DNA of 64,000 nt from Eledone cirrhosa (lineage: Eukaryota), in assembly GCA_964016885.1 (NCBI GenBank), contig OZ024765.1, positions 23,188,001-23,252,000 of the forward strand, written 5' to 3'. Positions 5,871 to 60,713 of the stretch are shown piece after piece; position 1 is the first letter of the stretch, and each line of letters starts with the position of its first letter. The notes beneath the pieces are model-generated. The model was not told the DNA's origin, made no database searches, and saw only the letters and a program-made list of their open reading frames with translations. Made by a program: the position numbers and the translations under genes.

Positions 5871-7898
5871 CAGGCTTGGAAAGTATGGCGGGATGGGGGA
5901 AGTAGAGTAGACTATCAAGTGGCCAGGAGGGAAGGTAGGAGAGAAGTGTACTTAGCAAGAAGGGAAGCTGAGGAAAGAAAGTTCAAGCATGTTCTACAAC
6001 GCGATGACCAAAAACGTGAGGTGTTCAGGATTGCTAGGCAATGCGTCAAGGAAATCCGTGATATTGTCGGGGAGAAGTGTGTACTTAACGATGATGGCAT
6101 ACTTGCCATCACCGACACTGATAAGAAGGTAGCTTGGAAGTGTCACTATGAAAGGCTACTAAATGAGGAGAATAAATGGGAGAAAGACAGTCTCCCCCAT
6201 ATCGACCCGATAGAGGGACCAGCAGTGTTAGTCAAGGGGAGTATAATAAGTAAGGCAATCAAGGATATGAAGACGGGTAAGGCGGCTGGGCCTTCGGAAA
6301 TAGTTGCTGAGATGCTGAAGGCATCTGGCACGGTGGGACACACCATGGTCACCCGCATAGTTAACCAAGTCATACAGAATGGGGTTGTTCCGAAGGACTG
6401 GCATAGCAGCATCATCGTTAACTGTTATAAGGGTAAAGGAGACGCCCTAGATAGGAGTAACTATAGAGGCATTAAATTAATCGACCAGGTCATGAAGGTC
6501 ACGGAAAAAGTAATAGCGCAACTAATCAGAGAGAGAATTGACCTAGATGAAATGCAGTTCGGGTTTGTGTCAGGCAAAAGCACCACAGACGCCCTTTTCA
6601 TAGTACGACAACTACAGGAGAAGTACCTAGCTAAAGGTAGACCCCTCTACTTAGCTTTTGTCGACCTGGAGAAAGCCTTCGACAGAGTCCCCCGCTCCAT
6701 TATCTGGTGGGCTCTTAGAAAACTAGGCGTTGACGAATGGCTTGTGAGGGCTATACAAGCCATGTATAAAGAAACAGTCAGCAAGGTTAGAATTAACAAC
6801 GAATATAGTGAAGAGTTTAGCGTAAAAGTTGGCGTCCATCAGGGCTCTGTTCTCAGCCCCCTACTATTTATTATTGCCCTTCAGGCTATAACAGAGGAGT
6901 TCAAGACAGGCTGCCCATGGGAACTCCTATACGCAGACGACCTGACACTCATAGCGGAATCAATGGCCGAGCTAGAGAAGAAATTCCAAACATGGAAGCA
7001 CGGCCTAGAGTCAAAAGGACTTAAAATTAACCTGGCTAAGACCAAAGTTCTAGTTTGTAGGAAAGAAAACAAGGCGGCGGTCCCTTCTGGGAAATGGTCG
7101 TGCTCGGTGTGTAGGAAAGGCATAGGTAGAAACTCCATTTTATGTCCTAAATGCAAAGTATGGGTGCATAAAAGATGTAGTGGGATCACAGGTAAGCTAA
7201 CTAAGAACATAGATTTTACATGTGGCCGGTGTTCTGGTGCAATAAGTAGCAGCAAGTGCCCACAAAATACTAGCTCTTTCAATTGCGCAGAGGGTTCTAT
7301 AGAAATAGTGGACAGCTTCCGTTACCTGGGCGATAAAATCAGCAGTGGGGGAGGGTGCTCTGAAAGTACTGTAGCTAGAGTCAGAACTGGTTGGAAAAAG
7401 TTCAGAGAGCTTATACCACTATTAGCTGCTAAAGGGTTCTCCCTAAAAATGAAAGGCAGGTTGTACGATGCCTGCATACGAACAGCAATGTTGCATGGTA
7501 GTGAGACCTGGGCATTGTGTGCAGAGGATATACGCAGACTAGAGAGGAACGAAGCTTGCATGCTCCGCTGGATGTGTAACAGTAATATACGTGAACGGCA
7601 AAGCATAAACGAACTAAGGAAAAAATTAGAGATAAGAGGGATCAGATGTTGTTTACTCGAGAGAAGGCTGCGTTGGTATGGACACGTGATGCGCATGAAA
7701 GTCGATAGCTGTATAACAAAGTGCAGGGCAATAAAGATAGACGGTAGCCACGGAATAGGCAGACCTAGAAAAACATGGGATGAGCTGATAAACTCCGACC
7801 TCACACACTTACACCTCTCCAAGACAATGTCACTGGACCGAGACCTTTGGCGGTACTCAGTAACAGAGAAGACCCGCCTTGCCAGTAGGCATCTCTAA
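5871..7898 (+). CDS. RTE ORF2 remnant: reverse transcriptase with embedded PHD-type finger; endonuclease missing
   Basis: Real coding part of ORF 4641..7898 starts after the microsatellite at QAWKVWRDGG. Confidence 0.88.
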   Translation, partial: QAWKVWRDGGSRVDYQVARREGRREVYLARREAEERKFKHVLQRDDQKREVFRIARQCVKEIRDIVGEKCVLNDDGILAITDTDKKVAWKCHYERLLNEENKWEKDSLPHIDPIEGPAVLVKGSIISKAIKDMKTGKAAGPSEIVAEMLKASGTVGHTMVTRIVNQVIQNGVVPKDWHSSIIVNCYKGKGDALDRSNYRGIKLIDQVMKVTEKVIAQLIRERIDLDEMQFGFVSGKSTTDALFIVRQLQEKYLAKGRPLYLAFVDLEKAFDRVPRSIIWWALRKLGVDEWLVRAIQAMYKETVSKVRINNEYSEEFSVKVGVHQGSVLSPLLFIIALQAITEEFKTGCPWELLYADDLTLIAESMAELEKKFQTWKHGLESKGLKINLAKTKVLVCRKENKAAVPSGKWSCSVCRKGIGRNSILCPKCKVWVHKRCSGITGKLTKNIDFTCGRCSGAISSSKCPQNTSSFNCAEGSIEIVDSFRYLGDKISSGGGCSESTVARVRTGWKKFRELIPLLAAKGFSLKMKGRLYDACIRTAMLHGSETWALCAEDIRRLERNEACMLRWMCNSNIRERQSINELRKKLEIRGIRCCLLERRLRWYGHVMRMKVDSCITKCRAIKIDGSHGIGRPRKTWDELINSDLTHLHLSKTMSLDRDLWRYSVTEKTRLASRHL

Positions 7899-8253
7899 CA
7901 AAATACACCCCGTCCCGCCACCACCCCCACCCCATCCACACCACCCCGTTCTATGTAAAGTTATGTTGGTGCCGCGCCATCCAGGCCGAAACAAATGAGA
8001 TCGTGTAGGTGTCACGACAAAAAAACACACAGTCCACGCTGTAATGTGGCCGTGTAGGCAACACGGTAAAAACCTCCCAGACCCACACTGTAAATGTGGT
8101 TGGTGTTAGGAAGGGCATCCAACTGTAGAAAACCTGCCAGACAGTCCTATGCGAGCAAGACAATCACTCTTGCCTCAAGTGGGACTACCCCCGTCCAAAC
8201 CCATGCAAGCGTGGAACACGGACGTTAAACGTTGATGATGATGATGATGATGA
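5871..8253 (+). mobile_element. RTE-clade LINE, family A, 5'-truncated copy with 3' UTR and (ATG)n tail
   Basis: RT motifs (NYRGIKL, FVDLEKAFDRVPR, GVHQGSVLSPLLF, LLYADD), C-terminal RRLRWYGHVMRM..GRPRKTW, ends ggacgttaaacg(atg)n. Confidence 0.93.
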
Positions 8254-8385
8254 TATATATATATATATATCGTGTGTGTGTATATCTTATATATGTGTGT
8301 GTATATATATATATATCTCGTGTGTGTGTGTGTATATGTGTATATATCTCGTGTGTGTGTGTGTGTGTATATATACATATATCTC

Positions 8386-8532: not shown

Positions 8533-9626
8533 CTAGGGCGGGTAAAATTCCCGAGATCCATGGACGAGTTCTCTCCAGCGGTCTCTGTCCCTCATTATCG
8601 CTGCCATGTCCTACATCTCCAACAGACCAGTGTCTGTCCTTAGGGCATCACCATACGCTAACCTTGGTCTCCCTCTTCTAGTGTGTCCATGTAGGGGCTC
8701 CCACAGGAGCACTGAGTGCAATGTCAACTCTGGATGTCGGTGAGCATGTCCAGCTAACCTCAGTCTCCCTCTTCCAGTGTGTCCATGTAGGGGCTCCCAC
8801 AGGAGCACTGAGTGCAATGTCAACTCTGGATGTCGGTGAGCATGTCCAGCTAACCTCAGTCTCCCTCTTCCAGTGTGTCCATGTAGGGGCTCCCAAAGGA
8901 GCACTGAGTGGAGTGTCAACTCTGGATGTCGGTGAGCATGTCCAGCTAACCTCAGTCTCCCTCTTCCAGTGTGTCCATGTAGGGGCTCCCACAGGAGCAC
9001 TGAGTGCAATGTCAACTCTGGATATCGGTGAGCATGTCCAGTTAACCTCAGTCTCCCTCTTCCAGTGTGTCCATGTAGGGGCTCCCAAAGGAGCACTGAG
9101 TGGAGTGTCAACTCTGGATGTCGGTGAGCATGTCCAGCTAACCTCAGTCTCCCTCTTCTAGTGTGTCCATTTAGGGGCTCCCACAGGAGCACTGAGTGCA
9201 GTGTCAACTCTGGATGTCGGTGAGCATGTCCAGCTAACCTCAGTCTCCCTCTTCCAGTGTGTCCATGTAGGGGCTCTCACAGGAGCACTGAGTGGAGTGT
9301 CAACTCTGGATGTCGGTGAGCATGTCCAGCTAACCTCAGTCTCTTCTGTGTCACTTTTGAGCTGACTTTTGCGGCGTGCCACAGCTTGAGATCGATGTGG
9401 AAGTCGGACCTTCGTAGAGACCTGAAAATCCGCCTCTTCATTGCTGTAGTGGAGTCTGTGCTGCTGTACGGGTCTGAGACTTGGACACTGACCAAGAAAC
9501 TCACTCAGATGGTAGATGGGTGCTACACGAGAATGCTGAGGATGGCTCTGAACATTAATCAGTATACACTGAGGATGAAGAACTCAGAGCTGCATGGGAG
9601 CCTCCCAAAAGTCAGCTCAAAAGTGT
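8533..9626 (-). mobile_element. RTE-like LINE 3' fragment (family C) with 5' inversion and internal tandem amplification
   Basis: Minus strand 9370->8533 reads KVSSKVTQKRLRLAGH..GRPRL..RDRWRELV. Plus strand 9371-9626 reads SVLLYGSETWTLT..LPKVSSKV. Confidence 0.85.
8667..9338. repeat. 96-bp minisatellite, 7 copies
   Basis: gtctccctcttccagtgtgtccatgtagggg.. recurs every 96 bp; encodes RLRLAGHAHRHPELTLHSVLLWEPLHGHTGRG on the minus strand. Confidence 0.95.
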
Positions 9627-9906: not shown

Positions 9907-10067
9907 TATATATATATATATATATATATATATCATATATATCGTGTGTGTCTACATATATATATCAAGTGTGTGTGTATATATACATATCTATATATGT
10001 ATTCATGTATGTATATGTACATATGTATGTATATATGTATGTGTGTGTGTGTGTATATATATATATT

Positions 10068-12233
10068 TATCATCATCAACGTTTAATGTCTATCTTCCAC
10101 GCTAGCATGGGTTTAGACGGGAATTGTCCCACTTGAGGCAAGATTGGTTGTCTTGCTCGTATAGGACTGTCTGGCAGGTTTTCTACAGCTGGATGCCCTT
10201 CCTAACACCAACCACGTTTACAGTGTGGGACTGGGAGGTTTTTACCATGTTACCTACAAGGCCACATTACAGCGTGGACTGTGTATTTTGTCATGACATC
10301 TACACGACCTCATTTATTTAGGACTGGATATTGTGGTACCACCATAACTTTGCAGAGAAAGAGGTGGTGTGGATGGGGTGGGGGTAGTGGGTAGTGGGAG
10401 GGGGTATATATTTGGTTGGGAGGTGCCTACTGACTGTAGGTTAACTTTGTACTTAGGCAAGGCGGGTCTTCTGTATTATTGTCCAGTGACATTGTCCTAG
10501 AGAGGTGTAAGTGTGTGAGGTCGCAATTTATCAGATCGTCCCAGGTTTTTCTGGGTCTGCCTACTCTGTAGCTACCGTCTATTTTGATCGTCCTGCACTT
10601 TTTTATACAGCTGTCGTCTTTCATGCACATCATGTGGCCATACCAACGTAGTCTTCTCTTGAGTGAACAGCATCTGATCCCTCTTATTCCTAATTTCTCA
10701 CTTAGTTCATTTATGCTTTGCCGTTCACGTATATTACTATTACACATCCAATGGAGCATGCATGCTTCATTCCTCTCCAGTCTGCGTAGATCCTCTGCAC
10801 ACAATGCTCAAGTCTCACTGCCATGTAACATTGCTGTTTGTATGCAGGCATCATACATCATACATCATACAGCCTGCCTTTCATTTTTAGAGAGAAACCT
10901 TTAGTGGTCAACAGTGGTATAAGCTCTCTGAACTTTTTCCATCCCATTCTGACTCTGGCTACTGTACTTTCAGAGCACCCTCCCCCACTGCTGATTTTGT
11001 CACCCAGGTAACGGAAGGTGTCCACTATTTCTATAGAACCATCTGGGCAATAGAAGAAGCAAGTATCCTGTGAGCACTTGCTACTTATTGCACCAGAGCA
11101 CCGGCCACATATAAAATCTATGTTCTTAGTTAGCTTACCTGTGATCCCACTACATCTTTTATGCACCCATACTTTGCATTTGTGACATAAAATGGAGTTT
11201 CTGCCTACTCCTTTCCTACACACTGAGCATGGCCATTTCCCAGAGGGGACCAGTGCCCTATTTTCCTTCCTACATACTAGAACTTTAGTCTTAGACAGGT
11301 TAACTTTAAGGCCTTTTGATTCTAGGTCCTGCTTCCATGTTTGGAATTTCTTCTCTAGTTCAGCCATTGATTCAGCTATGAGCGTTAGATCATCTACGTA
11401 TAGGAGTTCCCATGGGCATTCGGTCTTGAACTCCTCTGTTATAGCCTGAAGGGCAATAATAAATAGGAGGGGGCTAAGGACGGAGCCCTGATGAACACCA
11501 ACTTTTACGCTAAATTCTTCACTATATTCGTTGTTAATTCTAACCTTGCTGTCTGTTTCTTTATACATGGCTTGTATAGCTCTCACAAGCCATTCATCAA
11601 CCCCTAGTTTTCTAAGGGCCCACCAGATTATGGCGTGGGGGACTCTGTCAAATGCTTTCTCCAAGTCAACAAAAGCTAATTATAGGGGTTTACTTTTAGC
11701 TAGGTACTTACTTCTCCTGTAATTGTCGTACTATGAAAAGAGCGTCTGTGGTACTTTTACCTGACACAAACCCAAACTGCATTTCATCTAGATCAATTCG
11801 CCTTCTGATTAGTTGCGCTATAACTCTTTCTGTGACCTTCATGACCTGGTCAATTAATTTAATGCCTCTATAGTTTCCCCTATCTAGGGCATCTCCTTTA
11901 CCCTTGTAGCAGTTAATGATAATGCTACTACGCCAGTTATTTGGTATGACCCCATTCTGTATGACTTGGTTTACTATCCGGGTGACCATAGTGTGTCCCA
12001 CCGTTCCAGGTGCTTTCAGCAACTATCTCCAAAGGCCCAGCTGCCTTGCCTGTCTTCATATCTTTGATTGCCTTACTTATTGTACTCCCTTCAACTTGCA
12101 CTGCTGGTCCCTCTATGGAATCGATGTGGGCCAGACTTTGTCCCATTTATTCTCCTCATTTAGTAGCCTCTCGTAGTGACACTTCCAAGCTACCTTCTTA
12201 TCAGCGTCAGTGATGGCAAGTACACCATCATCT
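10068..12233 (-). mobile_element. RTE family A copy, 5'-truncated and frameshifted
   Basis: ORF pieces 11937-12146, 11708-12022, 10858-11664 and 10427-10804 are colinear with the copy at 5871; same 3' UTR. Confidence 0.92.
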
Positions 12234-12745: not shown

Positions 12746-13050
12746 ATCATCATCATTTAATGTTAGCATGGGTTGGACAGGTCTACATTGACCATGTCAG
12801 TACTGAAGTGGGGCTACTCACCTATTGAATAAAATGGTAGAAAATCTGGCAGTTTATTTCTACTGTTTCAAAGATGTACCATGAGTAAAAAAAGTTTGTA
12901 AACCACTGGATTAGGGCCTCTACAAGTGAAGGGTCCAGCAGCCCTAGTCATGACTTCCAGGTGTCCCCATGCTGATATCAACCCAGAACTTCCAGTGAGC
13001 TTCTTACCCATTCCTGTGGAAACAGATTGAAAAATGAAGTATATATGTAT

Positions 13051-13187
13051 AGTGGTTAGAGCATTGGCCTTGCAATCGAAAGGTTGTGAGTTCAATTCTC
13101 GGACCGGGTGATGTGTTGTTTCCTTGAGCAAGACACTTTATTTCACATTGCTCCAGTTTACTCAGCTGTAGAAATGTGATGATAGGA
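13051..13187 (+). mobile_element. tRNA-derived CORE-type SINE, 5' part
   Basis: agtggttagagc..gagttcaattc (A/B boxes) plus ccttgagcaagacacttt..cagctgtagaaatg (CORE-like). Confidence 0.8.
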
Positions 13188-18525: not shown

Positions 18526-19370
18526 GGGAAGTGGCCATGCGCAGAGTGTAGGAAAGGCGTAGGTAGAAATTCCATTTTGTGTCCCAAATGCAAAGTTTGG
18601 GTTCATAAAAGATGTAGTGGGATCACAGGTAAGCTAACTAAGAACATAGATTTTACATGTGGCCGGTGTTCTGGGGCAATAAGTAGCGGCAAGTGCCCAC
18701 AAAATACTAGCTCTTTCAACTGCGCAGAGGGTTCTATAGAAATAGTGGACAGCTTCCGTTACCTGGGTGACAAAATCAGCAGTGGGGGAGGGTGCTCTGA
18801 AAGTACAGTAGCTAGAGTCAGAACTGGGTGGAAAAAGTTCAGAGAGCTTATACCGCTATTAGCCGCTAAAGGGTTCTCCCTAAAAATGAAAGGCAGGTTA
18901 TACGATGCCTGCATACGAACAGCAATGTTGCATGGCAGTGAGACCTGGGCATTGTGTGCAGAGGATATACGCAGACTAGAGAGAAACGAAGCTTGCATGC
19001 TCCGCTGGATGTGTAATAGTAATATACGTGAACGACAAAGCATAAACGAACTAAGGAAAAAATTAGAAATAAGAGGGATCAGATGTTGTTTACTAGAGAG
19101 AAGGCTACGTTGGTATGGTCACGTGATGCGCATGAAGGACGATAGCTGTATAACAAAGTGCAGGGCAATAAAGATAGACGGTAGCCACGGAATAGGCAGA
19201 CCCAGAAAAACCTGGGACGAGCTGATAAACTCCGACCTCACGCACTTACACCTCACCAAGACAATGTCACTGGACCGAGACCTTTGGCGGTACTCAGTAA
19301 TAGAGAAGACCCGCCTTACCTAAGTATAAAGTAAAACCTACTACAGTCAGTAGGCATCTCTAACAAAATA
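18526..19370 (+). mobile_element. RTE family A fragment (PHD to stop), 3' UTR replaced
   Basis: ORF 18577..19323 nearly identical to the C-terminal part of 5871-7898. Confidence 0.9.
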
Positions 19371-19819: not shown

Positions 19820-27840
<8,021 letters not shown>

Positions 27841-27914
27841 TACATTATGAAGAGAGAAGAAACATTTAGATATAATTAGTAATAAAATGTATCATACCTA
27901 AACTGTTCCTAAAT

Positions 27915-28002
27915 TCCTCGACTACGTAGTTTCGTGGCATAAACAAAAACAATATATCAAAGATATAGAGTCCTTGCGAGGTCTGCCGACTTATCAAGAG
28001 GA
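27915..28002 (-). ncRNA. Type I hammerhead ribozyme, U3-A8 core variant (copy 1)
   Basis: Minus strand: TCCTC-TTGATAA-GTcGGCA..TGCCAC-GAA-ACTACGTAGT-C-GAGGA. Confidence 0.78.
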
Positions 28003-28502
28003 TACCTCATTTTACTAGTCTCAAGAACGCGTCTACACGACGTGAGAAAGAATCCCAAAAGGCGGAGGGGGAGATAGTCACGCGATATAACGGTCGAGAA
28101 ACAGAGCTAAGCCTCTTATAACCACGAAGAAAATACCACGGAGGCGGAGGGGGTATTCATATCGAGGCCGCAGAAGAGGTAGTGAAGAAGGCGAGAAGTA
28201 TGAGTAATGGAAGCTTTCCAGTTGTCCCCACACTTCAAAGATTGCTCGACCAGAGGGAGTTAATATATTTAGAAACACACAGATACATGCGGACACACAC
28301 ATATATACATGAATGCATCCGCACCCAACTGTGAGTTAAGGGTGCCAACTTCACCGATGTTGCTCAATGAATGACTGGGACAGACCAATTCAGTTTGAAC
28401 CGGACTGAACCAGTATCAGAGTTAAAAATACATTATGAAGAGAGAAGAAACATTTAGATATAATTAGTAATAAAATGTATCATACCTAAACTGTTCCTAA
28501 AT

Positions 28503-28590
28503 TCCTCGACTACGTAGTTTCGTGGCATAAACAAAAACAATATATCAAAGATATAGAGTCCTTGCGAGGTCTGCCGACTTATCAAGAGGA
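28503..28590 (-). ncRNA. Type I hammerhead ribozyme, U3-A8 core variant (copy 2)
   Basis: Identical motif 588 bp from copy 1. Confidence 0.78.
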
Positions 28591-29068
28591 TACCTCATTT
28601 TACTAGTCTCAAGAACGCGTCTACACGACGTGAGAAAGAATCCCAAAAGGCGGAGGGGGAGATAGTCACGCGATATAACGGTCGAGAAACAGAGCTAAGC
28701 CTCTTATAACCGCGAAGAAAATACCACGGAGGCGGAGGGGGTATTCATATCGAGGCCGCAGAAGAGGTAGTGAAGAAGGCGAGAAGTATGAGTAATGGAA
28801 GCTTTCCAGTTGTCCCCACACTTCAAAGATTGCTCGACCAGAGGGAGTTAATATATTTAGAAACACACAGATACATGCGGACACACACATATATACATGA
28901 ATGCATCCGCACCCAACTGTGAGTTAAGGGTGCCAACTTCGCCGATGTTGCTCAATGAATGACTGGGACAGACCAATTCAGTTTGAACCGGACCGAACCA
29001 GTATCAGAGTTAAAAATACATTATGAAGAGAGAAGAAACATTTAGATATAATTAGTAATAAAATGTAT

Positions 29069-29135
29069 ATATATATGTATATATGTATATATATATATAT
29101 GTATATATGTATATATATATATATATGTATATATG

Positions 29136-29184
<49 letters not shown>

Positions 29185-29263
29185 ATATATGTATATATAT
29201 ATATATGTATATATATGTATATATATATATATGTATATATGTATATATATATATGTATATATG

Positions 29264-29354
<91 letters not shown>

Positions 29355-29573
29355 ATATATATATGTATATATGTATATATGTATATATATATATGTATAT
29401 ATATATATATGTATATATATAGATATGTATATATATAGATATGTATATATATAGATATGTATATATATATATATGTATATATATATGTATATATATGTAT
29501 ATATGTATATATATATGTATATATGTATATATATATATATATGTATATATGTGTATATATATGTATATATGTG

Positions 29574-29606
<33 letters not shown>

Positions 29607-29637
29607 GTATATATATGTATACATATATATATATGTG

Positions 29638-29686
<49 letters not shown>

Positions 29687-29692
29687 GTATAC

Positions 29693-29736
<44 letters not shown>

Positions 29737-29757
29737 GTATACATATATATATATGTG

Positions 29758-29792
<35 letters not shown>

Positions 29793-29795
29793 GTG

Positions 29796-29831
<36 letters not shown>

Positions 29832-30050
29832 TGTATATATATGTATACATATATATATATGTATATATATATATGTATATATATATGTATACATATATAT
29901 ATATGTGTATATATATATATATATATGTGTATATATATATATATGTGTATATATATATATATATATGTGTATATATATGTATACATATATATATATGTGT
30001 ATATATATATGTATATATATATGTATACATATATATATATGTGTATATAT

Positions 30051-30128
<78 letters not shown>

Positions 30129-30502
30129 GTATATGTATATATATATGTATATATATATATATGTATATATATATGTATACATATATATATATGTGTATAT
30201 ATATATGTGTATATATATATGTATATATATATATATATGTATATATATATGTATACATATATATATATGTGTATATATATATATATATGTATATATATAT
30301 GTATACATATATATATATGTGTATATATATATATATATGTATATGTATATATGTATATGTATATATATGTATATATATGTATACATATATATATATGTAT
30401 ATATATATATATATGTATATGTATATGTATATATATGTATATATATGTATATATATATATATATGTATATGTATATGTATATATATGTATATATATGTAT
30501 AC

Positions 30503-30546
<44 letters not shown>

Positions 30547-30654
30547 GTATACATATATATATATGTATATATATATATATATGTATATATATATGTATAT
30601 ATATATATATATGTATATATATATGTATACATATATATATATGTGTATATATAT

Positions 30655-30704
<50 letters not shown>

Positions 30705-30785
30705 GTATACATATATATATATGTGTGTGTATATATGTATACATATATATGTGTATATATATGTATATATATGTATACATATATA

Positions 30786-30861
<76 letters not shown>
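29069..30861. repeat. (TA)n/(TATG)/(TACA) microsatellite
   Basis: Direct reading. Confidence 0.95.
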
Positions 30862-30862
<1 letters not shown>

Positions 30863-32573
30863 CTTCCACGCTAGCATGGGTCTGGATGGGAATTGTCCCA
30901 CTTGAGGCAAGATTGGTTGTCTTGCTTGTTCAGGACTGTCTGGCGGGTTTTCTACGGCTGGATGCCCTTCCTAACACCAACCACATTTACAGTGTGGGGC
31001 TGGGAGGTTTTTACCGTGTTACCTACACGGCCACATTACAGCGTGGACTGTGTGTTTTTTGTCATGACACCTACACGACCTCATTTGTTTCGGGCTGGAT
31101 GTTGTGGGACCAACATAACTTTACATCGAAAGGGGTGGTGTAGATGGGGATGGGGGTGTATATTTGGTTAAGAGGTGCCTACTGACTGTAGGTTTCGCTT
31201 TGTACTTAGGCAAGTCGGGTGTTCTGTATTACTCCGTAGCGCCAAAGATCTCCGTCCAGTGACATTGTCTTGGAGAGGTGTAAGTGTGTGAGGTCGGAAT
31301 TTATCAAGTCGTCCCGGTTTTTCTGGGTCTGCCTACTCTGTAGCTACCGTCTATTTTGATCGTCCTGCACTTTTTTATACAGCTGTCGTCTTTCATGCGC
31401 ATCACGTGACCATACCAACGTAGTCTTCTCTAGAGTAAACAGCATCTGATCCCGCTTATTCCTAATTTCTCACTTAGTTCATTTATGCTTTGCCGTTCAC
31501 ATATATTTCTATTACACATCCAATGGAGCATGCAAGCTTCATTCCTCTCCAGTCTGCACAGATCCTCTGCGCACAATGCCCAGGTCTCACTGCCATGTAA
31601 CATTGCTGTTCGTATGCAGGCATCATACAGCCTGCCTTTCATTTTTAGAGAGAAACCTTTAGCGTCCAATAGTGGTATAAGCTCTCTGAACTTTTTCCAT
31701 CCCGTTCTGACTCTAGCTACAGCACTTTCAGAGCACCCTCCCCCACTGCTGATTTTGTCACCCAAGTAACGGAAGGTGTCCACTATTTCTATAGAACCAT
31801 CTGGGCAATGGAATGAGCTAGTATTCTGTGGGCATTTGCTGCTACTTATTGCACCTGAGCACCGGCCACATATAAAATCTATATTCTTAGTTAGCTTACC
31901 TGTGATCCCACTACTGTACATCCTTTATGTACCCATAGTTTGCATTTGGGACATAAAATGGAGTTTCTGCCTACTCCTTTCCTACACACTGAGCATAGCC
32001 ATTTCGCAGATGGGACCAGTGCCCTATTTTCCTTCCTACATACTAGAACTTTAGTCTTAGACAAGTTAATTTTAAGGCCTTTTGATTCTAGGCCATGCTT
32101 CCATGTTTGGAATTTCTTCTCTAGTTCAGCCATTGATTCAGCTATGAGCGTTAGATCATCTGCGTATAGGAGTTCCCATGGGAAGCCGGTCTTGAACTCC
32201 TCTGTTATAGCCTGGAGGGCGATAATAAATAGGAGGGGGCTAAGGACAGAGCCCTGATGAACACCAATTTTTACGCTAAACTCTTCACTATATTAGTTGT
32301 TAATTCTAACCTTGCTGACTGTTTCTTTATACATGGCTTGTATAGCTCTCACGAGCCATTCATCAACACCTAGTTTTCTGAGAGCCCACCAGATAATGGG
32401 GCGTGGACTCTGTCAAAGGCTTTCTCCAAGTCAACAAAAGCTAAGTATAGGGGTTTACTTTTAGCTAGGTACTTACTTCTCCCGTAGTTGTCATACAATG
32501 AAAAGAGCGTCTGTGGTACTTTTACCTGACACAAACCCGAACTGCATTTCATCTAGATCAATTCGCTCTCTGA

Positions 32574-32576
<3 letters not shown>
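30862..32576 (-). mobile_element. RTE family A copy, truncated and frameshifted
   Basis: ORF pieces 32370-32552, 31891-32133 and 31430-31921, plus family A 3' UTR. Confidence 0.92.
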
Positions 32577-32620: not shown

Positions 32621-32968
32621 GGAGGCACATAGCTTAGTGGTTAGAGCATTGGCCTTGCAATCGAAAGGTTGTGAGTTCAATTCTCAGACTGGGTGATGTG
32701 TTGTTTCCTTGAGCAAGACACTTTATTTCACATTGCTTCAGTTTACTCAGCTGTAGAAATGAGATGATAGGGACTGGGGTCCCTATCATTCCACTGCAAA
32801 GTGGACGTCTAGGCGCCACGGCAAAAAAGCACCCAGCACTCACTGTAAATGAGGTTGGTGTTAGGAAGGGCATCCAGCTGTAGAACTCAAGCCAGAATCA
32901 GTTCCCGTCCCACCCTTGCAAGCAGGGAAAAGTGGACGTATGATGATGATGATGATGAATGATGATGA
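32621..32968 (+). mobile_element. Full-length tRNA-headed CORE-type SINE with RTE-derived tail
   Basis: A box tagcttagtgg, B box gttcaattc, CORE-like block, tail cccttgcaagcagggaaaagtggacgta(tga)n. Confidence 0.85.
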
Positions 32969-34859: not shown

Positions 34860-35660
34860 ATTGAAAATGCAACTCGAGTCTTTTAACCCTTTAGTATTTA
34901 CATTACTCTATATCTACCATTGTATTTTCACGACAGGCTTTATCTCATAATTATCTCACATAATATCGAATCTATGAGATTTTGATGTTATTTATTTTGA
35001 GAACAATACCTTAACATCAGTATGAGTGGCCGGTTATGGTGACTTTCAATAGGAAGAGGTAAGAGAATTTTGGCCAGATGTGGTTGGTTTAAATGCTAAC
35101 CCTGTGATGGGCTGGTGTCCTGTCCAGGGGGAAGTCTTGTACTATTAGATGTCACAGAAAACATAGAAACGTGGCCCAAGAACTGGTTGGATGAGCGTCC
35201 AGGCTTGCGACAGACTTCTGAGAGAATTCTGGCCGGATACGGTCGGTTTAAATGCTAATGGGTTCAGAATATTTATTTACTTTACCGGCTTCACAGTTCT
35301 TATTATTTTCAAAAGTAAAATTGTGATGGAGGGTTTGTTTCTGTAGTATTTCTCACAATTCTACTTTTGAAAATCATAAGAACTGTGAAGCCGGTAAAGT
35401 AAATAAATATTCTTAATCCTTTAGTATTTAAAGCAGTTACATCTGGCCAAACTTTTCTTACCTCTTTCTGTTCAAACCGGCCATAACGAGAAGATTATAC
35501 TAATGTTAAGGTATTGTTCTCAAAATAAATAATATCATCATCAAAACCTAGTAGATTCAATATTATTTGCGATAAGTATGTGAAATAAAACCTTTACCGC
35601 AAAAATCTAATAGTAAAGCAATGTAAATGCTAAAGGGCTAAAAGACTCCTGTTGCATTAT

Positions 35661-35664
<4 letters not shown>
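34860..35664. mobile_element. Foldback/inverted-repeat structure containing two opposed piggyBac-like MITEs
   Basis: Arms match from attgaaaatgcaac/gttgcattatcaat inward to a central palindrome at 35266-35413; ttaaccctttag..ctaaaggg(c/t)taa termini. Confidence 0.6.
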
Positions 35665-39233: not shown

Positions 39234-39470
39234 CTTCTTCTTCTCCCACTCATTCCTGAGAGGATCGTGGGTGTAGAGTCCCCAAACTCCTTCCAGCAGG
39301 TCCTGTCAGAAGCAAACGTCTCCAACTGATCCAGTAAGACCAGCCAAGCTCATTGATGTTATTCAACCATCTTGCTCGGGCTCTACACTTGGGTCTCCTA
39401 CCTCTTTCCTGAGACATTCCAACCACATGCCTGTAGTACCAGAGCTGTGGTCTCTCAATTCAGAGATTCT
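39234..39470 (-). mobile_element. RTE (Expander/Rex3-like) 3' end, family D; source of the adjacent satellite
   Basis: Minus strand reads IERPQLWYYRHVVGMSQER-GRRPKCRARARWLNNINELGWS with a (GAA)n tail; the same terminus recurs at ~37497-37530. Confidence 0.75.
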
Positions 39471-42400
39471 TTCCTGAGACATTCTAACCACATGTCTGTA
39501 GTATCAGAGCTGTGGTCTCTCAATCCAGAGATTCTTTCCTGAGACATTCTAACCACATGTCTGTAGTATCAGAGCTGTGGTCTCTCAATTCAGAGATTCT
39601 TTCCTTAGACATTCTAACCACATGTCTGTAGTATCAGAGCTGTGGTCTCTCAATTCAGAGATTCTTTCCTGAGACATTCTAACCACATGTCTGTAGTATC
39701 AGAGCTGTGGTCTCTCAATTCAGAGATTCTTTCCTTAGACATTCTAACCACATGTCTGTAGTATCAGAGCTGTGGTCTCTCAATTCAGAGATTCCTTCCT
39801 TAGACATTCTAACCACATGTCTGTAGTATCAGAGCTGTGGTCTCTCAATTCAGAGATTCTTTCCTCAGACATTCTAACCACATGTCTGTAGTATCACAGC
39901 TGTGGTCTCTCAATTCAGAGATTCTTTCCTGAGACATTCTAACCACATGTCTGTAGTATCAGAGCTGTGGTCTCTCAATTCAGAGATTCTTTCCTCAGAC
40001 ATTCTAACCACATGTCTGTAGTATCAGAGCTGTGGTCTCTCAATTCAGAGATTCTTTCCTGAGACATTCTAACCACATGTCTGTAGTATCAGAGCTGTGG
40101 TCTCTCAATTCAGAGATTCCTTCCTTAGACATTCTAACCACATGTCTGTAGTATCAGAGCTGTGGTCTCTCAATTCAGAGATTCCTTCCTTAGACATTCT
40201 AACCACATGTCTGTAGTATCAGAGCTGTGATCTCTCAATTCAGAGATTCCTTCCTTAGACATTCTAACCACATGTCTGTAGTATCAGAGCTGTGATCTCT
40301 TAATCCAAAGATTCTTTCCTGAGATATTCTAACCACATGTCTGTAGTATCAGAGCTGTGGTCTCTCAATCCAGAGATTCTTTCCTCAGACATTCTAACCA
40401 CATGTCTGTAGTATCAGAGCTGTGATCTCTCAATTCAGAGATTCTTTCCTCAGACATTCTAACCACATGTCTGTAGTATCAGAGCTGTGATCTCTTAATC
40501 CATAGATTCTTTCCTGAGCTATTCTAACCACATGTCTGTAGTATCAGAGCTGTGGTCTCTCAATTCAGAGATTCCTTCCTTAGACATTCTAACCACATGT
40601 CTGTAGTATCAGAGCTGTGGTCTCTCAATTCAGAGATTCTTTCCTGAGACATTCTAACCACATGTCTGTAGTATCAGAGCTGTGGTCTCTCAATTCAGAG
40701 ATTCTTTCCTTAGACATTCTAACCACATGTCTGTAGTATCAGAGCTGTGGTCTCTCAATTCAGAGATTCCTTCCTTAGACATTCTAACCACATGTCTGTA
40801 GTATCAGAGCTGTGGTCTCTCAATTCAGAGATTCTTTCCTCAGACATTCTAACCACATGTCTGTAGTATCACAGCTGTGGTCTCTCAATTCAGAGATTCT
40901 TTCCTGAGACATTCTAACCACATGTCTGTAGTATCAGAGCTGTGGTCTCTCAATTCAGAGATTCTTTCCTCAGACATTCTAACCACATGTCTGTAGTATC
41001 AGAGCTGTGGTCTCTCAATTCAGAGATTCTTTCCTGAGACATTCTAACCACATGTCTGTAGTATCAGAGCTGTGGTCTCTCAATTCAGAGATTCCTTCCT
41101 TAGACATTCTAACCACATGTCTGTAGTATCAGAGCTGTGGTCTCTCAATTCAGAGATTCTTTCCTCAGACATTCTAACCACATGTCTGTAGTATCAGAGC
41201 TGTGGTCTCTCAATTCAGAGATTCCTTCCTTAGACATTCTAACCACATGTCTGTAGTATCAGAGCTGTGATCTCTCAATTCAGAGATTCCTTCCTTAGAC
41301 ATTCTAACCACATGTCTGTAGTATCAGAGCTGTGATCTCTCAATTCAGAGATTCCTTCCTTAGACATTCTAACCACATGTCTGTAGTATCAGAGCTGTGA
41401 TCTCTTAATCCAAAGATTCTTTCCTGAGATATTCTAACCACATGTCTGTAGTATCAGAGCTGTGGTCTCTCAATCCAGAGATTCTTTCCTCAGACATTCT
41501 AACCACATGTCTGTAGTATCAGAGCTGTGATCTCTTAATCCAGAGATTCTTTCCTCAGACATTCTAACCACATGTCTGTAGTATCAGAGCTGTGATCTCT
41601 TAATCCATAGATTCTTTCCTGAGCTATTCTAACCACATGTCTGTAGTATCAGAGCTGTGGTCTCTCAATTCAGAGATTCCTTCCTTAGACATTCTAACCA
41701 CATGTCTGTAGTATCAGAGCTGTGGTCTCTCAATCCAGAGATTCTTTCCTGAGACATTCTAAACACATGTCTGTAGTATCAGAGCTGTGGTCTCTCAAGT
41801 CAGAGATTCTTTCCTGAGACATTCTAACCACATGTCTGTAGTATCAGAGCTGTGATCTCTTAATCCAGAGATTCTTTCCTCAGACATTCTAACCACATGT
41901 CTGTAGTATCAGAGCTGTGGTCTCTCAATTCAGAGATTCTTTCCTGAGACATTCTAACCACATGTCTGTAGTATCAGAGCTGTGGTCTCTCAATTCAGAG
42001 ATTCTTTCCTCAGACATTCTAACCACATGTCTGTAGTATCAGAGCTGTGGTCTCTCAATTCAGAGATTCTTTCCTTAGACATTCTAACCACATGTCTGTA
42101 GTATCACAGCTGTGGTCTCTCAATTCAGAGATTCTTTCCTCAGACATTCTAACCACATGTCTGTAGTATCAGAGCTGTGGTCTCTCAATTCAGAGATTCT
42201 TTCCTGAGACATTCTAACCACATGTCTGTAGTATCAGAGCTGTGGTCTCTCAATTCAGAGATTCCTTCCTTAGACATTCTAACCACATGTCTGTAGTATC
42301 AGAGCTGTGGTCTCTCAATTCAGAGATTCTTTCCTCAGACATTCTAACCACATGTCTGTAGTATCAGAGCTGTGGTCTCTCAATTCAGAGATTCCTTCCT

Positions 42401-45400
42401 TAGACATTCTAACCACATGTCTGTAGTATCAGAGCTGTGATCTCTCAATTCAGAGATTCCTTCCTTAGACATTCTAACCACATGTCTGTAGTATCAGAGC
42501 TGTGATCTCTCAATTCAGAGATTCCTTCCTTAGACATTCTAACCACATGTCTGTAGTATCAGAGCTGTGATCTCTTAATCCAAAGATTCTTTCCTGAGAT
42601 ATTCTAACCACATGTCTGTAGTATCAGAGCTGTGGTCTCTCAATCCAGAGATTCTTTCCTGAGACATTCTAAACACATGTCTGTAGTATCAGAGCTGTGG
42701 TCTCTCAAGTCAGAGATTCTTTCCTGAGACATTCTAACCACATGTCTGTAGTATCAGAGCTGTGATCTCTTAATCCAGAGATTCTTTCCTCAGACATTCT
42801 AACCACATGTCTGTAGTATCAGAGCTGTGGTCTCTCAATCCAGAGATTCTTTCCTGAGACATTCTAAACACATGTCTGTAGTATCAGAGCTGTGGTCTCT
42901 CAAGTCAGAGATTCTTTCCTGAGACATTCTAACCACATGTCTGTAGTATCAGAGCTGTGATCTCTTAATCCAGAGATTCTTTCCTCAGACATTCTAACCA
43001 CATGTCTGTAGTATCAGAGCTGTGATCTCTCAATTCAGAGATTCTTTCCTCAGACATTCTAACCAAATGTCTGTAGTATCAGAGCTGTGATCTCTTAATC
43101 CAGAGATTCTTTCCTGAGACATTCTAACCACATGTCTGTAGTATCAGAGCTGTGATCTCTCAATTCAGAGATTCTTTCCTCAGACATTCTAACCACATGT
43201 CAGTAGTATCAGAGCTGTGATCTCTCAATTCAGAGATTCTTTCCTCAGACGTTCTAACCACATGTCTGTAGTATCAGAGCTGTGATCTCTTAATCCAGAG
43301 ATTCTTTCCTCAGACATTCTAACCACATGTCTGTAGTATCAGAGCTGTGATCTCTCAATTCAGAGATTCTTTCCTGACACATTCTAACCGCATGTCTGTA
43401 GTATCTAAGCTGTGATCTCTTAATCGAGAGATTCTTTCCTGAAACATTCTAACCACATGTCTGTAGTATCAGAGCTGTGATCTCTCAATCCAGAGATTCT
43501 TTCCTGAGACATTCTAACCACATGTCTGTAGTATCAGAGCTGTGCTCTCTCAATTCAGAGATTCTTTCCTCAGATATTCTAACCACATCTCAGTAGTATC
43601 AGAGCTGTGATCTCTCAATTCAGAGATTCTTTCCTGAGTCATTCTAACCCCATGTCTGTAGTATCAGAGCTGTGATCTCTTAATCCAGAGATTCTTTCCT
43701 GAGACATTCTAACCACATGTCTGTAGTATCAGAGCTGTGATATCTTAATCCAGAGATTCTTTCCTGAGACATTCTAACAACATGTCTGTAGTATCAGAGC
43801 TGTGCTCTCTAAATCCAGAGATTCTTTTCTCAGACATTCTAACCACATGTCTGTAGTATCAGAGCTGTGATCTCTTAATCCAGAGATTCTTTCCTGAGAC
43901 ATTCTAACCACATGTCTGTAGTATCAGAGCTGTAATCTCTTAATCCAGAGATTTTTTCGTGAGACATTCTAACCACATGTCTGTAGTATCAGAGCTGTAA
44001 TCTCCCAATTCAGAAATTCTTTCCTGAGACATTCTAAACACATGTCTGTAGTATCAGAGCTGTGATCTCTTAATCCAGAGATTCTTTCCTGAGACATTCT
44101 AACCACATATCTGTAGTATCAGAGCTGTGATCTCTCAATTCAGAGATTCTTTCCTGAGATATTCCAATCACATGTCTGTAGTATCAGAGCTGTGCTCTCT
44201 AAATCCAGAGATTCTTTTCTCAGACATTCTAACCACATGTCTGTAGTATCAGAGCTTGGATCTCTCAATCCAGAGATTCTTTCCTCAGACATTCTAACCA
44301 CATGTCTGTAGTATCAGAGCTGTGATCTCTCAATTCAGAGATTTTTTCCTCAGACATTCTAACCACATGTCTGTAGTATCAGAGCTGTGATCTCTCAATT
44401 CAGAGATTCTTTCCTGACACATTCTAACCGCATGTCTGTAGTATCTAAGCTGTGATCTCTTAATCGAGAGATTTTTTCCTGAGACATTCTAACCACATGT
44501 CTGTAGTATCAGAGCTGTGATCTTTCAATCCAGAGATTCTTTCCTCAGACATTCTAACCACATGTCTGTAGTATCAGAGCTGTGCTCTCTCAATTCAGAG
44601 ATTCTTTCCTCAGATATTCTAACCATATCTCAGTAGTATCAGAGCTGTGATCTCTCAATTCAGAGATTCTTTCCTGAGACATTCTAACCCCATGTCTGTA
44701 GTATCAGAGGTGTGATCTCTTAATCCAGAGATTCTTTCCTGAGACATTCTAACCACATGTCTGTAGTATCAGAGCTGTGATATCTTAATCCAGAGATTCT
44801 TTCCTGAGACATTCTAACCACATGTCTGTAGTATCAGAGCTGTGCTCTCTAAATCCAGAGATTATTTTCTCAGACATTCTAACCACATGTCTGTAGTATC
44901 AGAGCTGTGATCTCTTAATCCAGAGATTCTTTCCTGAGACATTCTAACCACATGTCTGTAGTATCAGAGCTGTAATCTATTAATCCAGAGATTTTTTCGT
45001 GAGACATTCTAACCACATGTCTGTAGTATCAGAGCTGTGATCTCCCAATTCAGAAATTCTTTCCTGAGACATTCTAAACACATGTCTGTAGTATCAGAGC
45101 TGTGATCTCTTAATCCAGAGATTCTTTCCTGAGACATTCTAACCACATATCTGTAGTATCAGAGCTGTGATCTCTCAATTCAGAGATTCTTTCCTGAGAC
45201 ATTCCAATCACATGTCTGTAGTATCAGAGCTGTGATCTCTTAATCCAGAGGTTCTTTTCTGAGACATTCTAACCACATGTCTGTAGTATCAGAGCTGTGA
45301 TCTCTCAATCCAGAGATTCTTTCCTGAGACATTCTAACCACATGTCTGTAGTATCAGAGCTGGGATCTCTCAATTCAGAGATTCTTTCCTGAGTCATTCT

Positions 45401-46839
45401 AACCACATGTCTGTAGTATCAGAGCTTCGATCTTTCAATTCAGAGATTCTTTCCTGAGACATTCTAACCACATGTCTGTAGTATCAGAGCTGTGATCTCT
45501 CAATTCAGAGATTCTTTCCTGAGTCATTCTAACCACATGTCTGTAGTATCAGAGCTGTGATCTCTCAATTCAGAGATTCTTTCCTGACACATTCTAACCA
45601 CATGTCTGTAGTATCAGAGCTGTGATCTCTCAATTCAGAGATTCTTTCCTCAGACATTCTAACCACATGTCTGTAGTATCAGAGCTGTGATCTCTCAATC
45701 CAGAGATTCTTTCCTCAGACATTCTAACCACATGTCTGTAGTATCAGAGCTGTGATCTGTCAATCCAGAGATTCTTTCCTCAGACATTCTAACCACATGT
45801 CTGTAGTGTCAGAGCTGTGATCTCTCAATCCAGAGATTATTTCCTCAGACATTCTAACCACATGTCTGTAGTATCAGAGCTGTGATCTCTCAATCCAGAG
45901 ATTCTTTCCTCAGACATTCTAACCACATGTCTGTAGTATCAGAGCTGTGATCTGTCAATCCAGAGATTCTTTCCTCAGACATTCTAACCACATGTCTGTA
46001 GTATCAGAGCTGTGATCTCTCAATCCAGAGATTCTTTCCTCAGACATTCTAACCACATGTCTGTAGTATCAGAGCTGTGATCTCTCAATTCAGAGATTCT
46101 TTCCTCAGACATTCTAACCACATGTCTGTAGTATCAGAGTTGTGATCTCTCAATCCAGAGATTCTTTCCTCAGACATTCTAACCACATGTCTGTAGTATC
46201 AGAGCTGTGATCTCTCAATCCAGAGATTATTTCCTCAGACATTCTAACCACATGTCTGTAGTATCAGAGCTGTTATCTCTCAATCCAGAGATTCTTTCCT
46301 CAGACATTCTAACCACATGTCTGTAATATCAGAGCTGTGATCTCTCAATTCAGAGATTCTTTCCTCAGACATTCTAACCACATGTCTGTAGTATCAGAGC
46401 TGTGATCTGTCAATCCAGAGATTCTTTCCTCAGACATTCTAACCACATGTCTGTAGTATCAGAGCTGTGATCTCTCAATCCAGAGATTCTTTCCTCAGAC
46501 ATTCTAACCACATGTCTGTAGTATCAGAGCTGTGATCTCTCAATCCAGAGATTCTTTCCTCAGACATTCTAACCACATGTCTGTAGTATCAGAGCTGTGA
46601 TCTCTCAATCCAGAGATTATTTCCTCAGACATTCTAACCACATGTCTGTAGTATCAGAGCTGTGATCTCTCAATCCAGAGATTCTTTCCTCAGACATTCT
46701 AACCACATGTCTGTAGTATCAGAGCTGTGATCTCTCAATTCAGAGATTCTTTCCTCAGACATTCTAACCACATGTCTGTAGTATCAGAGCTGTGATCTGT
46801 CAATCCAGAGATTCTTTCCTCAGACATTCTAACCACATG
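39403..46839. repeat. 65-bp intronic satellite, ~114 copies
   Basis: cagagattctttcctgagacattctaaccacatgtctgtagtatcagagctgtggtctctcaatt; 39461 to 46741 is exactly 112x65. Confidence 0.97.
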
Positions 46840-47133: not shown

Positions 47134-48420
47134 TCTGTCTGTCTGTCCCTATGTCTGTCTGTCCCTATGTCTGTCTGTCTGTATGTCTGTCCCTATGTCT
47201 GTCTGTCTGTCCGTCTGTCTGTCTGTCTGTCTGTCCCTATGTCTGTCTGTCTGTCTGTCCCTATGTATGTCTGTCTGTCCCTATGTCTGTCTGTCTGTCT
47301 GTCCCTATGTCTGTCTGTCTGTCTGTCCCTATGTCTGTCTGTATGTTCCTATGTCTGTCTGTCTGTCCCTATGTCTGTCTGTCTGTCTGTCTGTCCCTAT
47401 GTCTGTCTGTCCGTCTGTCTGTCTGTCCCTATGTCTGTCTGTCTGTCTGTCCCTATGTCTGTCTGTCTGTCTGTCCCTATGTATGTCTGTCTGTCCCTAT
47501 GTCTGTCTGTCTGTCCCTATGTCTGTCTGTCTGTCTGTCCCTATGTCTGTCTGTCTGTCCGTCTGTCTGTCTGTCTGTCCGTCTGTCTGTCTGTCTGTCC
47601 CTATGTCTGTCTGTCTGTCCCTATGCCTGTCTGTCTGTCCCTATGTCTGTCTGTCTGTCCGTCTGTCCGTCTGTCTGTCCCTATGTCTGTCTGTCTGTCC
47701 CTATGTCTGTCTGTCTGTCTGTCTGTCCCTATGTCTGTCTGTCTGTCCCTATGTCTGTCTGTCTGTCCCTATGTCTGTCTGTATGTCCCTATGTCTGTCT
47801 GTCTGTCCCTCTGTCTGTCTGTCCGTCTGTCTGTCTGTCTGTCCCTATGTCTGTCTGTCTGTCCCTATGCCTGTCTGTCTGTCCCTATGTCTGTCTGTAT
47901 GTCCCTATGTCTGTCTGTCCCTATGCCTGTCTGTCTGTCCCTATGTCTGTCTGTCTGTCCCTCTGTCTGTATGTCCCTATGTCTGTCTGTCTGTCCCTAT
48001 GTCTGTCTGTCTGTCCCTATGTCTGTCTGTATGTCCCTATGTCTGTCTGTCTGTCCCTATGCCTGTCTGTCTGTCCCTATGCCTGTCTGTATGTCCCTAT
48101 GTCTGTCTGTCTGTCCCTATGTCTGTCTGTCTGTCCCTATGTCTGTCTGTATGTCCCTATGTCTGTCTGTATGTCCCTATGTCTGTCTGTATGTCCCTAT
48201 GTCTGTCTGTATGTCCCTATGTCTGTCTGTATGTCCCTATGTCTGTCTGTATGTCCCTATGCCTGTCTGTATGTCCCTATGTCTGTCTGTCTGTCCCTAT
48301 GCCTGTCTGTCTGTCCCTATGCCTGTCTGTCTGTCCCTATGTCTGTCTGTCTGTCCGTATGTATGTCTGTCTGTCCGTATGTATGTCTGTCTGTCCCTAT
48401 GTCTGTCTGTCTGTCTGTCT
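47134..48420. repeat. (GTCT)n-GTCCCTAT compound satellite
   Basis: Direct reading; same repeat at 54046-54117 and 57097-58766. Confidence 0.95.
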
Positions 48421-48595
48421 GAGGATAGTAGACGTGTTTCGTATCGCTCCGTGATTTGGATTTTTACCTGCTAATTTTGTGAGTGGATTTTTTTGAATTC
48501 TTTTGTATAATTAACTGTAACCCCTAGTCTGGGACTCTAGAGGTCGGGTAAATATATTTTCACCCCTTTTGGGGTGAAAAATAAATATTTTAGAA

Positions 48596-50359: not shown

Positions 50360-50382
50360 GTGCCTCTTTCTTTGCCACCAAC

Positions 50383-53901: not shown

Positions 53902-54117
53902 CCCCAAAACGATTCCTCCCTATTGAAGACCTTCTTGTTATTATTTTGTTTGTTATATTTTTCTTACTCGATTTTTATGTAAACTCCCCCCACCCATGTA
54001 AATGTCCCTTTCTTTTGTGCCCTAGTGGCAAATAAACAGAAATTTGTCTCTCTGTCCCTATGTCTGTCTGTCTGTCTGTCCCTATGTCTGTCTGTCTGTC
54101 CCTATGTCTGTCTGTAT

Positions 54118-58766: not shown

Positions 58767-58941
58767 GAGGATAGTAGACGTGTGTCATATCGCTCTGTGA
58801 TTTGGATTTTTACCTGCTAATTTTGTGAGTGGATTTTTTTGAATTATTTTGTATAATTAACTGTAACCCCTAGTCTGGGACTCTAGACGTCGGGTAAATA
58901 TATTTTCACCCCTTTTGGGGTGAAAAATAATTATTTGAGAA

Positions 58942-60690: not shown

Positions 60691-60713
60691 GTGCCTCTTT
60701 CTTTGCCACCAAC

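Follow-up and report, generated by a model that had tools for sequence, protein, structure and literature searches.

What kind of element carries an 88-base motif that resembles a hammerhead ribozyme, how might this motif cut its RNA, and how did the element reach the site where it is found? These questions are raised by a locus on the minus strand of the window, i.e., the entire 64-kb stretch of Eledone cirrhosa DNA that was analyzed. A sequence-only reading of this DNA had described one motif, with a core that is changed at positions 3 and 8 and with a palindromic stem III, and had regarded it as a rare and selected variant. The features discussed below are collected in Table 1.

Table 1. 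Features of the insertion and its surroundings (positions in the window)
Feature	Position	Strand	Description
Whole insertion	27841..29068	minus	1,228 nt = two 588-nt units + 52 nt (2.09 copies)
Monomer	27920..28507	minus	588 nt between two cut sites, predicted
Tail, 3' end	27841..27892	minus	52 nt; also found as 28429-28480 and, at the 5' end, as 29017-29068
Left flank	19820..27840		8-kb TA/TG microsatellite, insertion target
Right flank	29069..30862		1.8-kb TA/TG microsatellite, orientation as left flank
Possible internal promoter	28061..28152	minus	two copies of CCCCTCCGCC around TATAA
Hammerhead copy 1	27915..28002	minus	type I, downstream copy in sense RNA; descriptor scan and folding
Hammerhead copy 2	28503..28590	minus	identical to copy 1, upstream in sense RNA
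Core	27991..27997	minus	UUGAUAA; U3 = 27997, A8 = 27992
Stem I	28002-27998 / 27919-27915	minus	UCCUC/GAGGA, 5 bp
Stem II domain	27934..27990	minus	57 nt, predicted unbranched; folding
Basal stem II	27990-27984 / 27939-27934	minus	GU(C)GGCA/UGCCAC
GAA 3' of stem II	27933-27931	minus	
Stem III	27921..27930	minus	perfect 10-nt palindrome ACUACGUAGU
C17 of GUC cleavage site	27920	minus	predicted cut between 27920 and 27919
Hairpin just 3' of cut	27858..27910	minus	19 bp, +10 to +62; also 28446-28498; folding
Possible pseudoknot	27978..28008	minus	GAGGU (28008-28004) / ACCUC (27982-27978) of stem II internal loop; prediction

The hammerhead motif and its stem II

The core with its double change is present on the minus strand, and the stem I UCCUC/GAGGA, the palindromic stem III and the GUC triplet, all named in the sequence-only reading, were located on the same strand. 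The features that define a type I hammerhead are found together, i.e., the core UUGAUAA with GAAA and with positions 3 and 8 able to pair (U3-A8), stems I-III around this core with the ends in stem I, the pairs G10.1-C11.1 and A15.1-U16.1, and an NUH cleavage site. A type I descriptor that allowed the four possible 3-8 pairs, applied to both strands over 64 kb, returned exactly two motifs, copies 1 and 2, and 5,000 dinucleotide-shuffled versions of the unit gave 2 loose hits, none with a palindromic stem III; the motif is therefore found above chance. No Rfam hammerhead family matched the motif, either at the gathering score or at E up to 10, where an Rfam match is the criterion of a library and not a structural one. 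Judged by sequence and predicted pairing, the 88-base motif is a real hammerhead motif of type I whose core has U3-A8. A pattern scan of viral and metagenome data (palindrome and core, gap 30-60) yielded three loci of one sequence, which have C3 with A8 and no basal stem II and were attributed to chance.

The U3-A8 pair was correctly described as a natural swap that is tolerated, as reported in PMC3088659. That it is rare could not be upheld: PMC4209133 lists about 1,300 U3-A8 motifs in Schistosoma Penelope-like elements, prints the core UUGAUAA in its Fig. S3, gives in the same figure natural cases of U3 with G8, and shows stems III that are 10-nt palindromes in its supplement. The expectation that such a motif escapes standard searches holds, as seen from the Rfam result and from the first descriptor of PMC4209133, which also missed U3-A8. 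The argument from covariation to selection is not supported: there is only one double change relative to the textbook core, and copies 1 and 2 are identical.

In the earlier description stem II consisted of basal pairs, GU(C)GGCA/UGCCAC, enclosing two small hairpins; the basal pairs stand, and the branching is not supported by the folding model. With basal stem II fixed, the two-hairpin form is predicted at -6.2 kcal/mol, i.e., 9.4 kcal/mol worse than an unbranched form at -15.6 kcal/mol, in which GCAAGGAC/GUUUUUGU and then UAUAUC/GAUAUA pair with probabilities of 0.96-1.0, and no branched form is found among the 8 structures within 3 kcal/mol. The unbranched form, which the folding model predicts to be preferred, is composed of 2 bp, a bulged C, 4 bp, a 6x3 internal loop (GACCUC/UUA), an 8-bp helix with many G-U pairs, a 2x2 loop and a 6-bp tip hairpin. 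Two variants near stem II in the public sequencing run X3, an A to G opposite U at 28543 (11%) and a 2-nt insertion in the tip loop (4%), are compatible with the branched and the unbranched form alike. An extension of stem I by GUAUC/GAUAC, suggested in the same reading, cannot form fully beside stem I, with which it shares its UC. Another candidate, a distal stem I made of UAGUAAAAUG/CAUUUUAUUA, was rejected: it forms in a 143-nt fragment but has a probability of 0.00 in the whole monomer.

A tandem unit inserted in a microsatellite

The second hammerhead, the 588-nt tandem unit and the insertion in a microsatellite are all absent from the sequence-only reading. Each unit contains one complete type I hammerhead, so that two units carry two motifs. 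The unit is non-coding, with a longest stop-to-stop frame of 85 codons, and there is no LTR, end repeats being limited to the 52-nt tail. Having no ORF in its unit, the element is not an autonomous Penelope-like element. The sequence pair around TATAA, which we take to be GC-box-like, marks a region that is a possible internal promoter. Further copies of the unit or inverted arms were not found within the 64-kb window, and none of 12 window ORFs that were scanned, reverse transcriptases included, matched a GIY-YIG endonuclease. Because the reverse transcriptases of the window are without such a match, no helper element is in view.

Several other repeats share the window. Tandem copies of a two-ORF non-LTR retrotransposon (endonuclease, RVT_1, zf-RVT), 96-99% identical and with a 20-nt minisatellite between them, occupy 47134-64000, where three retrotransposon stretches fold far beyond shuffles on both strands (z -4 to -8). 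Older non-LTR element copies with RVT_1 and PHD-finger, 84-95% alike, are found in both orientations at 6090-8265, 10054-12232, 18526-19370 and 30585-32575. A tRNA-like head (Rfam tRNA, 31.2 bits) at 32628-32691, directly after an AT repeat and with related copies at 13050-13186 and elsewhere, is probably that of a SINE, and an 800-nt fold-back element at 34860-35664, with arms 76% alike over 250 nt and z scores of -15 and -25 by strand, looks like a miniature inverted-repeat element. A 65-bp satellite with 114 copies (94% matches) lies at 39403-46839 and a 96-bp repeat with 7 copies at 8657-9343; the descriptor scan found no hammerheads in either.

Counted from the predicted cut in the sense RNA, the insertion ends at +28 on the 5' side and at +79 on the 3' side, i.e., insertion ends and cut site do not coincide. 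Because the sense RNA begins at +28 and ends at +79, 52 nt are duplicated at both ends. The sequence ATGTA is found at both junctions, yet it occurs 59-68 times per kb in the flanks. The two ends (27841-27847 and 29062-29068) form a TA/TG-like inverted repeat of 6-7 nt, in which the outer 7 nt of the tail are complementary, and short pairing with the TA/TG target could have primed both junctions.

Units 1 and 2 differ at three positions (28124/28712, 28353/28941 and 28406/28994), at all of which unit 1 has the letter of the public majority. At 28402/28990 the units have in common a letter that is not represented in the X3 depth at this site, and both are without 3 nt that are present in the runs X1, X10 and X13. 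A private letter and an absence of 3 nt that are common to both units are expected from one template lineage. The insertion has four private substitutions (28402/28990 in both units, and 28712, 28941 and 28994 in unit 2), each of which creates a CpG (p ~2 x 10^-4 for random transitions, noticed post hoc). On the sense RNA these are one A to G and three U to C, for which editing of the sense strand alone is insufficient; the CpG changes may derive from an older lineage rich in CpG, from editing that acted on both strands or from an artefact of assembly.

Words of the unit are found in 20 of 24 listed public runs, with organism codes A-Q (17 labels), and the element was aligned against 8 runs, i.e., seven contig runs including X3 and one raw-read run (X22). 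In X3, 1,540 contigs align with the unit, at a summed depth of 1.1-5.5 x 10^5 per bin (a depth, not a copy number), and, in a listing of the top 10 of 103 loose ends, 8 contigs join TA repeats at 28428, i.e., at the 3' end of the window copy. These contigs and TA junctions show a many-copied family with the dispersed copies that characterize retrozymes. Head-to-tail continuity of the unit is seen also in runs other than X3. In X1, X10 and X13 a form that is 3 nt longer is found; in X1 it is a contig of 591+30 letters that closes on itself, as either tandem DNA or a circular molecule would give. The six other contig runs (X1, X10, X13, X15, X16 and X17) contain near-identical pieces at a depth of ~2-13 per contig; in X15, X16 and X17 these are short and are found without diverged relatives, and in X1 the depth of the element is below that of neighbouring unrelated contigs (11-61). 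No reads of X22 fall on the element outside a CA stretch. From this pattern of depth, the pieces in the six runs are probably trace carry-over of a very abundant repeat.

Besides the private letter at 28402, 15 sites of the 588 nt have substitutions at ≥3% in X3. Seven of these are unpaired in the predicted circle; at paired sites all six transitions keep the pair (p ~0.04) and both transversions break it. No variant at ≥3% is found in the core, stem I, stem III or basal stem II, where the chance of missing these 37 positions is 0.38. The sequence-only reading had named random core changes in other copies as evidence against selected activity; none appear at this threshold, which is a weak test, and 3-8 covariation, on which the same reading relied, is not seen within the family. 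Two diverged relatives in X3 (records 10 and 11), ~80-85% alike, align over 28503-28600; for record 10 the alignment is confined to this interval, i.e., to the ribozyme and 10 nt of its 5' flank, and the remainder of the contig is unaligned. In a diverged contig of X10 (record 8, depth 2; relatives overall are ~80-89% alike) 9 changes are listed for the 54 nt that follow the ribozyme, and its 3' half has none listed (p 0.03-0.10); three unlisted changes lie close to the ends of the contig, and the pattern is a hint only.

Predicted folding and cleavage

The 588-nt circle is predicted to fold at -175.5 kcal/mol, with z scores of -7.0 (60 shuffles) and -5.9 (40 shuffles) for the sense strand and -0.8 for the antisense strand. 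Among 14 control stretches (8 shuffles each, six of them rerun with 25), four reach z ≤ -5 on one strand, and these four fold strongly on both strands (other strand at least -4.3). It follows that the strength of the monomer fold is not unique, and that its bias to one strand is. The same bias is found for the region of the 19-bp hairpin just behind the cut (z -4.4 for sense vs +0.1 for antisense).

The proposal that the palindrome favours a double hammerhead is borne out in the folding model. For the palindrome a self-duplex is predicted at -12.9 kcal/mol, compared with +1.5 kcal/mol for a hairpin; stem III of the monomer is limited to 3 bp and a tetraloop, and the stem is stable only as a duplex. 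An unconstrained co-fold of two 88-mers gives the double hammerhead at -57.3 kcal/mol, compared with -41.4 kcal/mol for two active monomers. The hammerheads are predicted to cut as pairs. In the isolated 88-mer the active monomer costs only 1.1 kcal/mol relative to the free fold. For an active hammerhead in the circle this cost is 8 kcal/mol, and for the double hammerhead in the 1,228-nt transcript it is 13.4 kcal/mol, pseudoknots not counted. Active folds are unfavoured in these longer RNAs partly because the CCUC of stem I is taken up in a hairpin with a GAGG that lies just 5' of this stem. The ribozyme is predicted to be silent in the circle.

The predicted hairpin between the flanking GAGG and stem I would be inhibitory. 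An alternative partner of this flank is found in the internal loop of stem II, where GAGGU/ACCUC could form a pseudoknot of 5 bp (-5.4 kcal/mol); at least 5 such pairs occur in 0.5% of random 8-mers, the interval for this comparison having been chosen post hoc. Watson-Crick pseudoknots between the stem I and stem II regions are predicted in ~40% of the hammerhead set of PMC3088659. The present pairing resembles these braces in joining the two regions, and differs from them in being predicted only, in its long stem II internal loop and in the competing inhibitory hairpin. We tentatively propose, as a model that is possible and still doubtful, that the hammerhead is a self-switching ribozyme built of two blocks each of GAGG and CCUC. 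In the off state the GAGG on the 5' side would be held in the hairpin with the CCUC of stem I, and in the on state the GAGG/ACCUC pseudoknot would free stem I and brace the weaker U3-A8 core. Cutting would then be restricted to the tandem precursor and the circle would be spared, and the hairpin that follows the cut site would label the start and end points of a borrowed Penelope enzyme.

Mode of mobilization, related elements and meaning

We consider it probable, with some reservation, that the element is a non-autonomous, non-coding Penelope-type retrozyme, in which the hammerheads would cut as pairs and a borrowed Penelope enzyme would convert the RNA back to DNA. The tandem copies would be transcribed on the minus strand. 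In two neighbouring motifs the palindromes would then form a 10-bp stem III, with the stem I strands swapped and a cut after GUC, and paired cutting would release the 588-nt monomer. A host ligase may close this monomer to a strongly self-paired circle, by analogy with PMC7229834, and the lone hammerhead, predicted to be folded away in the circle, would be spared. A Penelope-like endonuclease/reverse transcriptase would nick (TA)n, and copying would begin at a fixed internal position of the RNA, 79 nt beyond the cut and immediately after the 19-bp hairpin, as suggested by comparison with PMC11167929. Reverse transcription 2.09 times round, ending at +28, would leave the 52-nt tail at both ends.

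The individual parts of this cycle have precedents in the literature, i.e., circle ligation and more-than-unit copying in the retrozyme cycle (PMC7229834), tandem hammerhead repeats linked to Penelope-like elements (10.64898/2026.07.22.740005 and PMC7229834), internal starts of reverse transcription with a tail that is the stretch between two boundaries (PMC11167929), and (TA)n targeting with 4-bp stem III hammerheads in the Hydra clade (PMC8557442). The traits that mark non-autonomous elements mobilized by Penelope, i.e., a partial-tandem structure, a fixed 3' end past the hammerhead, a tail and a microsatellite target, are all present. The (TA)n target and the form of stem III suggest a helper of the Hydra clade, by resemblance only.

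Metazoan non-LTR retrozymes (PMC7229834; 10.64898/2026.07.22.740005) are likewise tandem units that do not code for protein, lack an LTR and have a single type I hammerhead per unit, a GC content under 50% and a predicted self-paired monomer. The unit is within the 51-972 bp range of the preprint (10.64898/2026.07.22.740005) and longer than the 150-450 bp retrozymes of PMC7229834. It differs from the metazoan retrozymes in its U3-A8 core, in its 57-nt stem II domain and in a circle that is predicted to block the hammerhead; for most animal circles the prediction is that the hammerhead remains free (PMC7229834).

The hammerheads of Schistosoma mansoni Cercyon elements (PMC4209133) share with the present motif the U3-A8 pair, a core UUGAUAA that is printed for S. 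mansoni (3), and a palindromic stem III with proposed dimer activity. The Cercyon motifs are minimal: stem III is nearly absent, loop II is short and one additional base separates 9 from 10.1; in contrast, the present motif has a 10-nt palindrome, a long stem II, A9 directly before G10.1 and a bulge after 10.2. Assignment to the minimal hammerhead of PMC4209133 is excluded by the 10-nt stem III and by the lack of an unpaired base between 9 and 10.1.

In Hydra-clade Penelope-like elements (e.g., Penelope-1_SK and Penelope-1_HM; PMC8557442) insertion in (TA)n and a hammerhead near the 3' end are found as well, and their stem III of 4 bp with a 1-2-nt loop, including a perfect 10-nt palindrome in Saccoglossus, is like that of the window motif. 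The Hydra-clade rows of File S2 of that paper, in contrast, all have C3-G8 and short loops II, and the palindrome ACUACGUAGU was not found in its supplement. Furthermore, the present element is without an ORF. The anole Poseidon element PAc (PMC11167929) also ends inside the RNA, downstream of the hammerhead and near a stem-loop, has a tail between two boundaries and inserts in an AT-rich target. PAc is autonomous, with a tail of 30-40 bp and an AC-rich stem-loop, compared with the 52-nt tail that is found here at both ends in direct orientation.

Several observations stand against the retrozyme reading. The three differences between the units are not accounted for if a single circle was copied in one round, the tail, at 52 nt, exceeds the 30-40 in print, no helper element was found in the window, the double hammerhead is 13.4 kcal/mol less favourable than the free fold of the whole transcript, 4 of the 14 control stretches also fold strongly, and both paired-site transversions break their pair. 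A need for cleavage is itself called into question by published data, in that only one of nine Xenopus retrozyme dimers was cleaved in vitro (10.64898/2026.07.22.740005) and the hammerhead of the anole Poseidon element required protein and was dispensable for insertion (PMC11167929). An alternative that we regard as rather unlikely keeps the same element and helper, with an uncut linear multimer as template and a weak or protein-assisted hammerhead that is dispensable for insertion. It would agree with insertion ends away from the cut site, with unit differences as a mixed precursor would give them, with active folds 8-13 kcal/mol above the free fold in long RNA, and with the use of unprocessed RNA as the main in vitro substrate in PMC11167929. 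It agrees less well with the strong fold of the whole unit, which is limited to the sense strand and resembles descriptions of retrozyme circles, and, as a weak test, with a core and stems that are without X3 variants at ≥3%.

A different mode of cutting within the same cycle, which is improbable, would be efficient cleavage by the monomer, where the pseudoknot between the flank and loop II would brace stems I and II and the palindrome would be a back-up only. The 5-bp Watson-Crick match adjoins both stems, similar braces are common in other hammerheads (PMC3088659) and the active form is close to the free fold in the isolated 88-mer, but a stem III of 3 bp and a tetraloop (+1.5 kcal/mol), a dimer that is 16 kcal/mol better and a brace without covariation support point away from such monomers. 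Even less probable is an inactive relic, i.e., a single Penelope terminal-repeat fragment that was duplicated at the DNA level by slippage or unequal exchange. Tandem duplication of DNA would also yield shared private letters, and local amplification from terminal sequences is discussed in 10.64898/2026.07.22.740005; against this stand the youth and high abundance of the family, its one common 3' end, and variants that tend to keep the fold of the sense RNA. Spread of the element between species, as the many runs and organism codes that contain part of it could suggest, is highly improbable, because among the 8 aligned runs the element is deep only in X3.

The retrozyme reading, in its best form, is that of a young, abundant, retrozyme-like element, a fresh example rather than a separate kind. 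U3-A8, the UUGAUAA core and 10-nt palindromes are already published for Penelope-like elements, i.e., the traits that had been singled out are in print, and the motif alone is therefore of modest interest. The combination of U3-A8, a long stem II and a flank-to-loop pseudoknot was not found in the literature searched, in which supplements were partly covered. A very abundant retrozyme family that is invisible to Rfam and to CUGANGA searches implies that such elements are probably undercounted. Should the pseudoknot switch and the fixed ends be confirmed, the 588-591-nt family would be a simple substrate for studies of ribozyme silencing in retrozyme circles, as well as of start-site choice and tail formation by Penelope enzymes. 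The switch, if true, would provide a compact model of how animal retrozyme circles avoid self-cutting, a question left open in PMC7229834.
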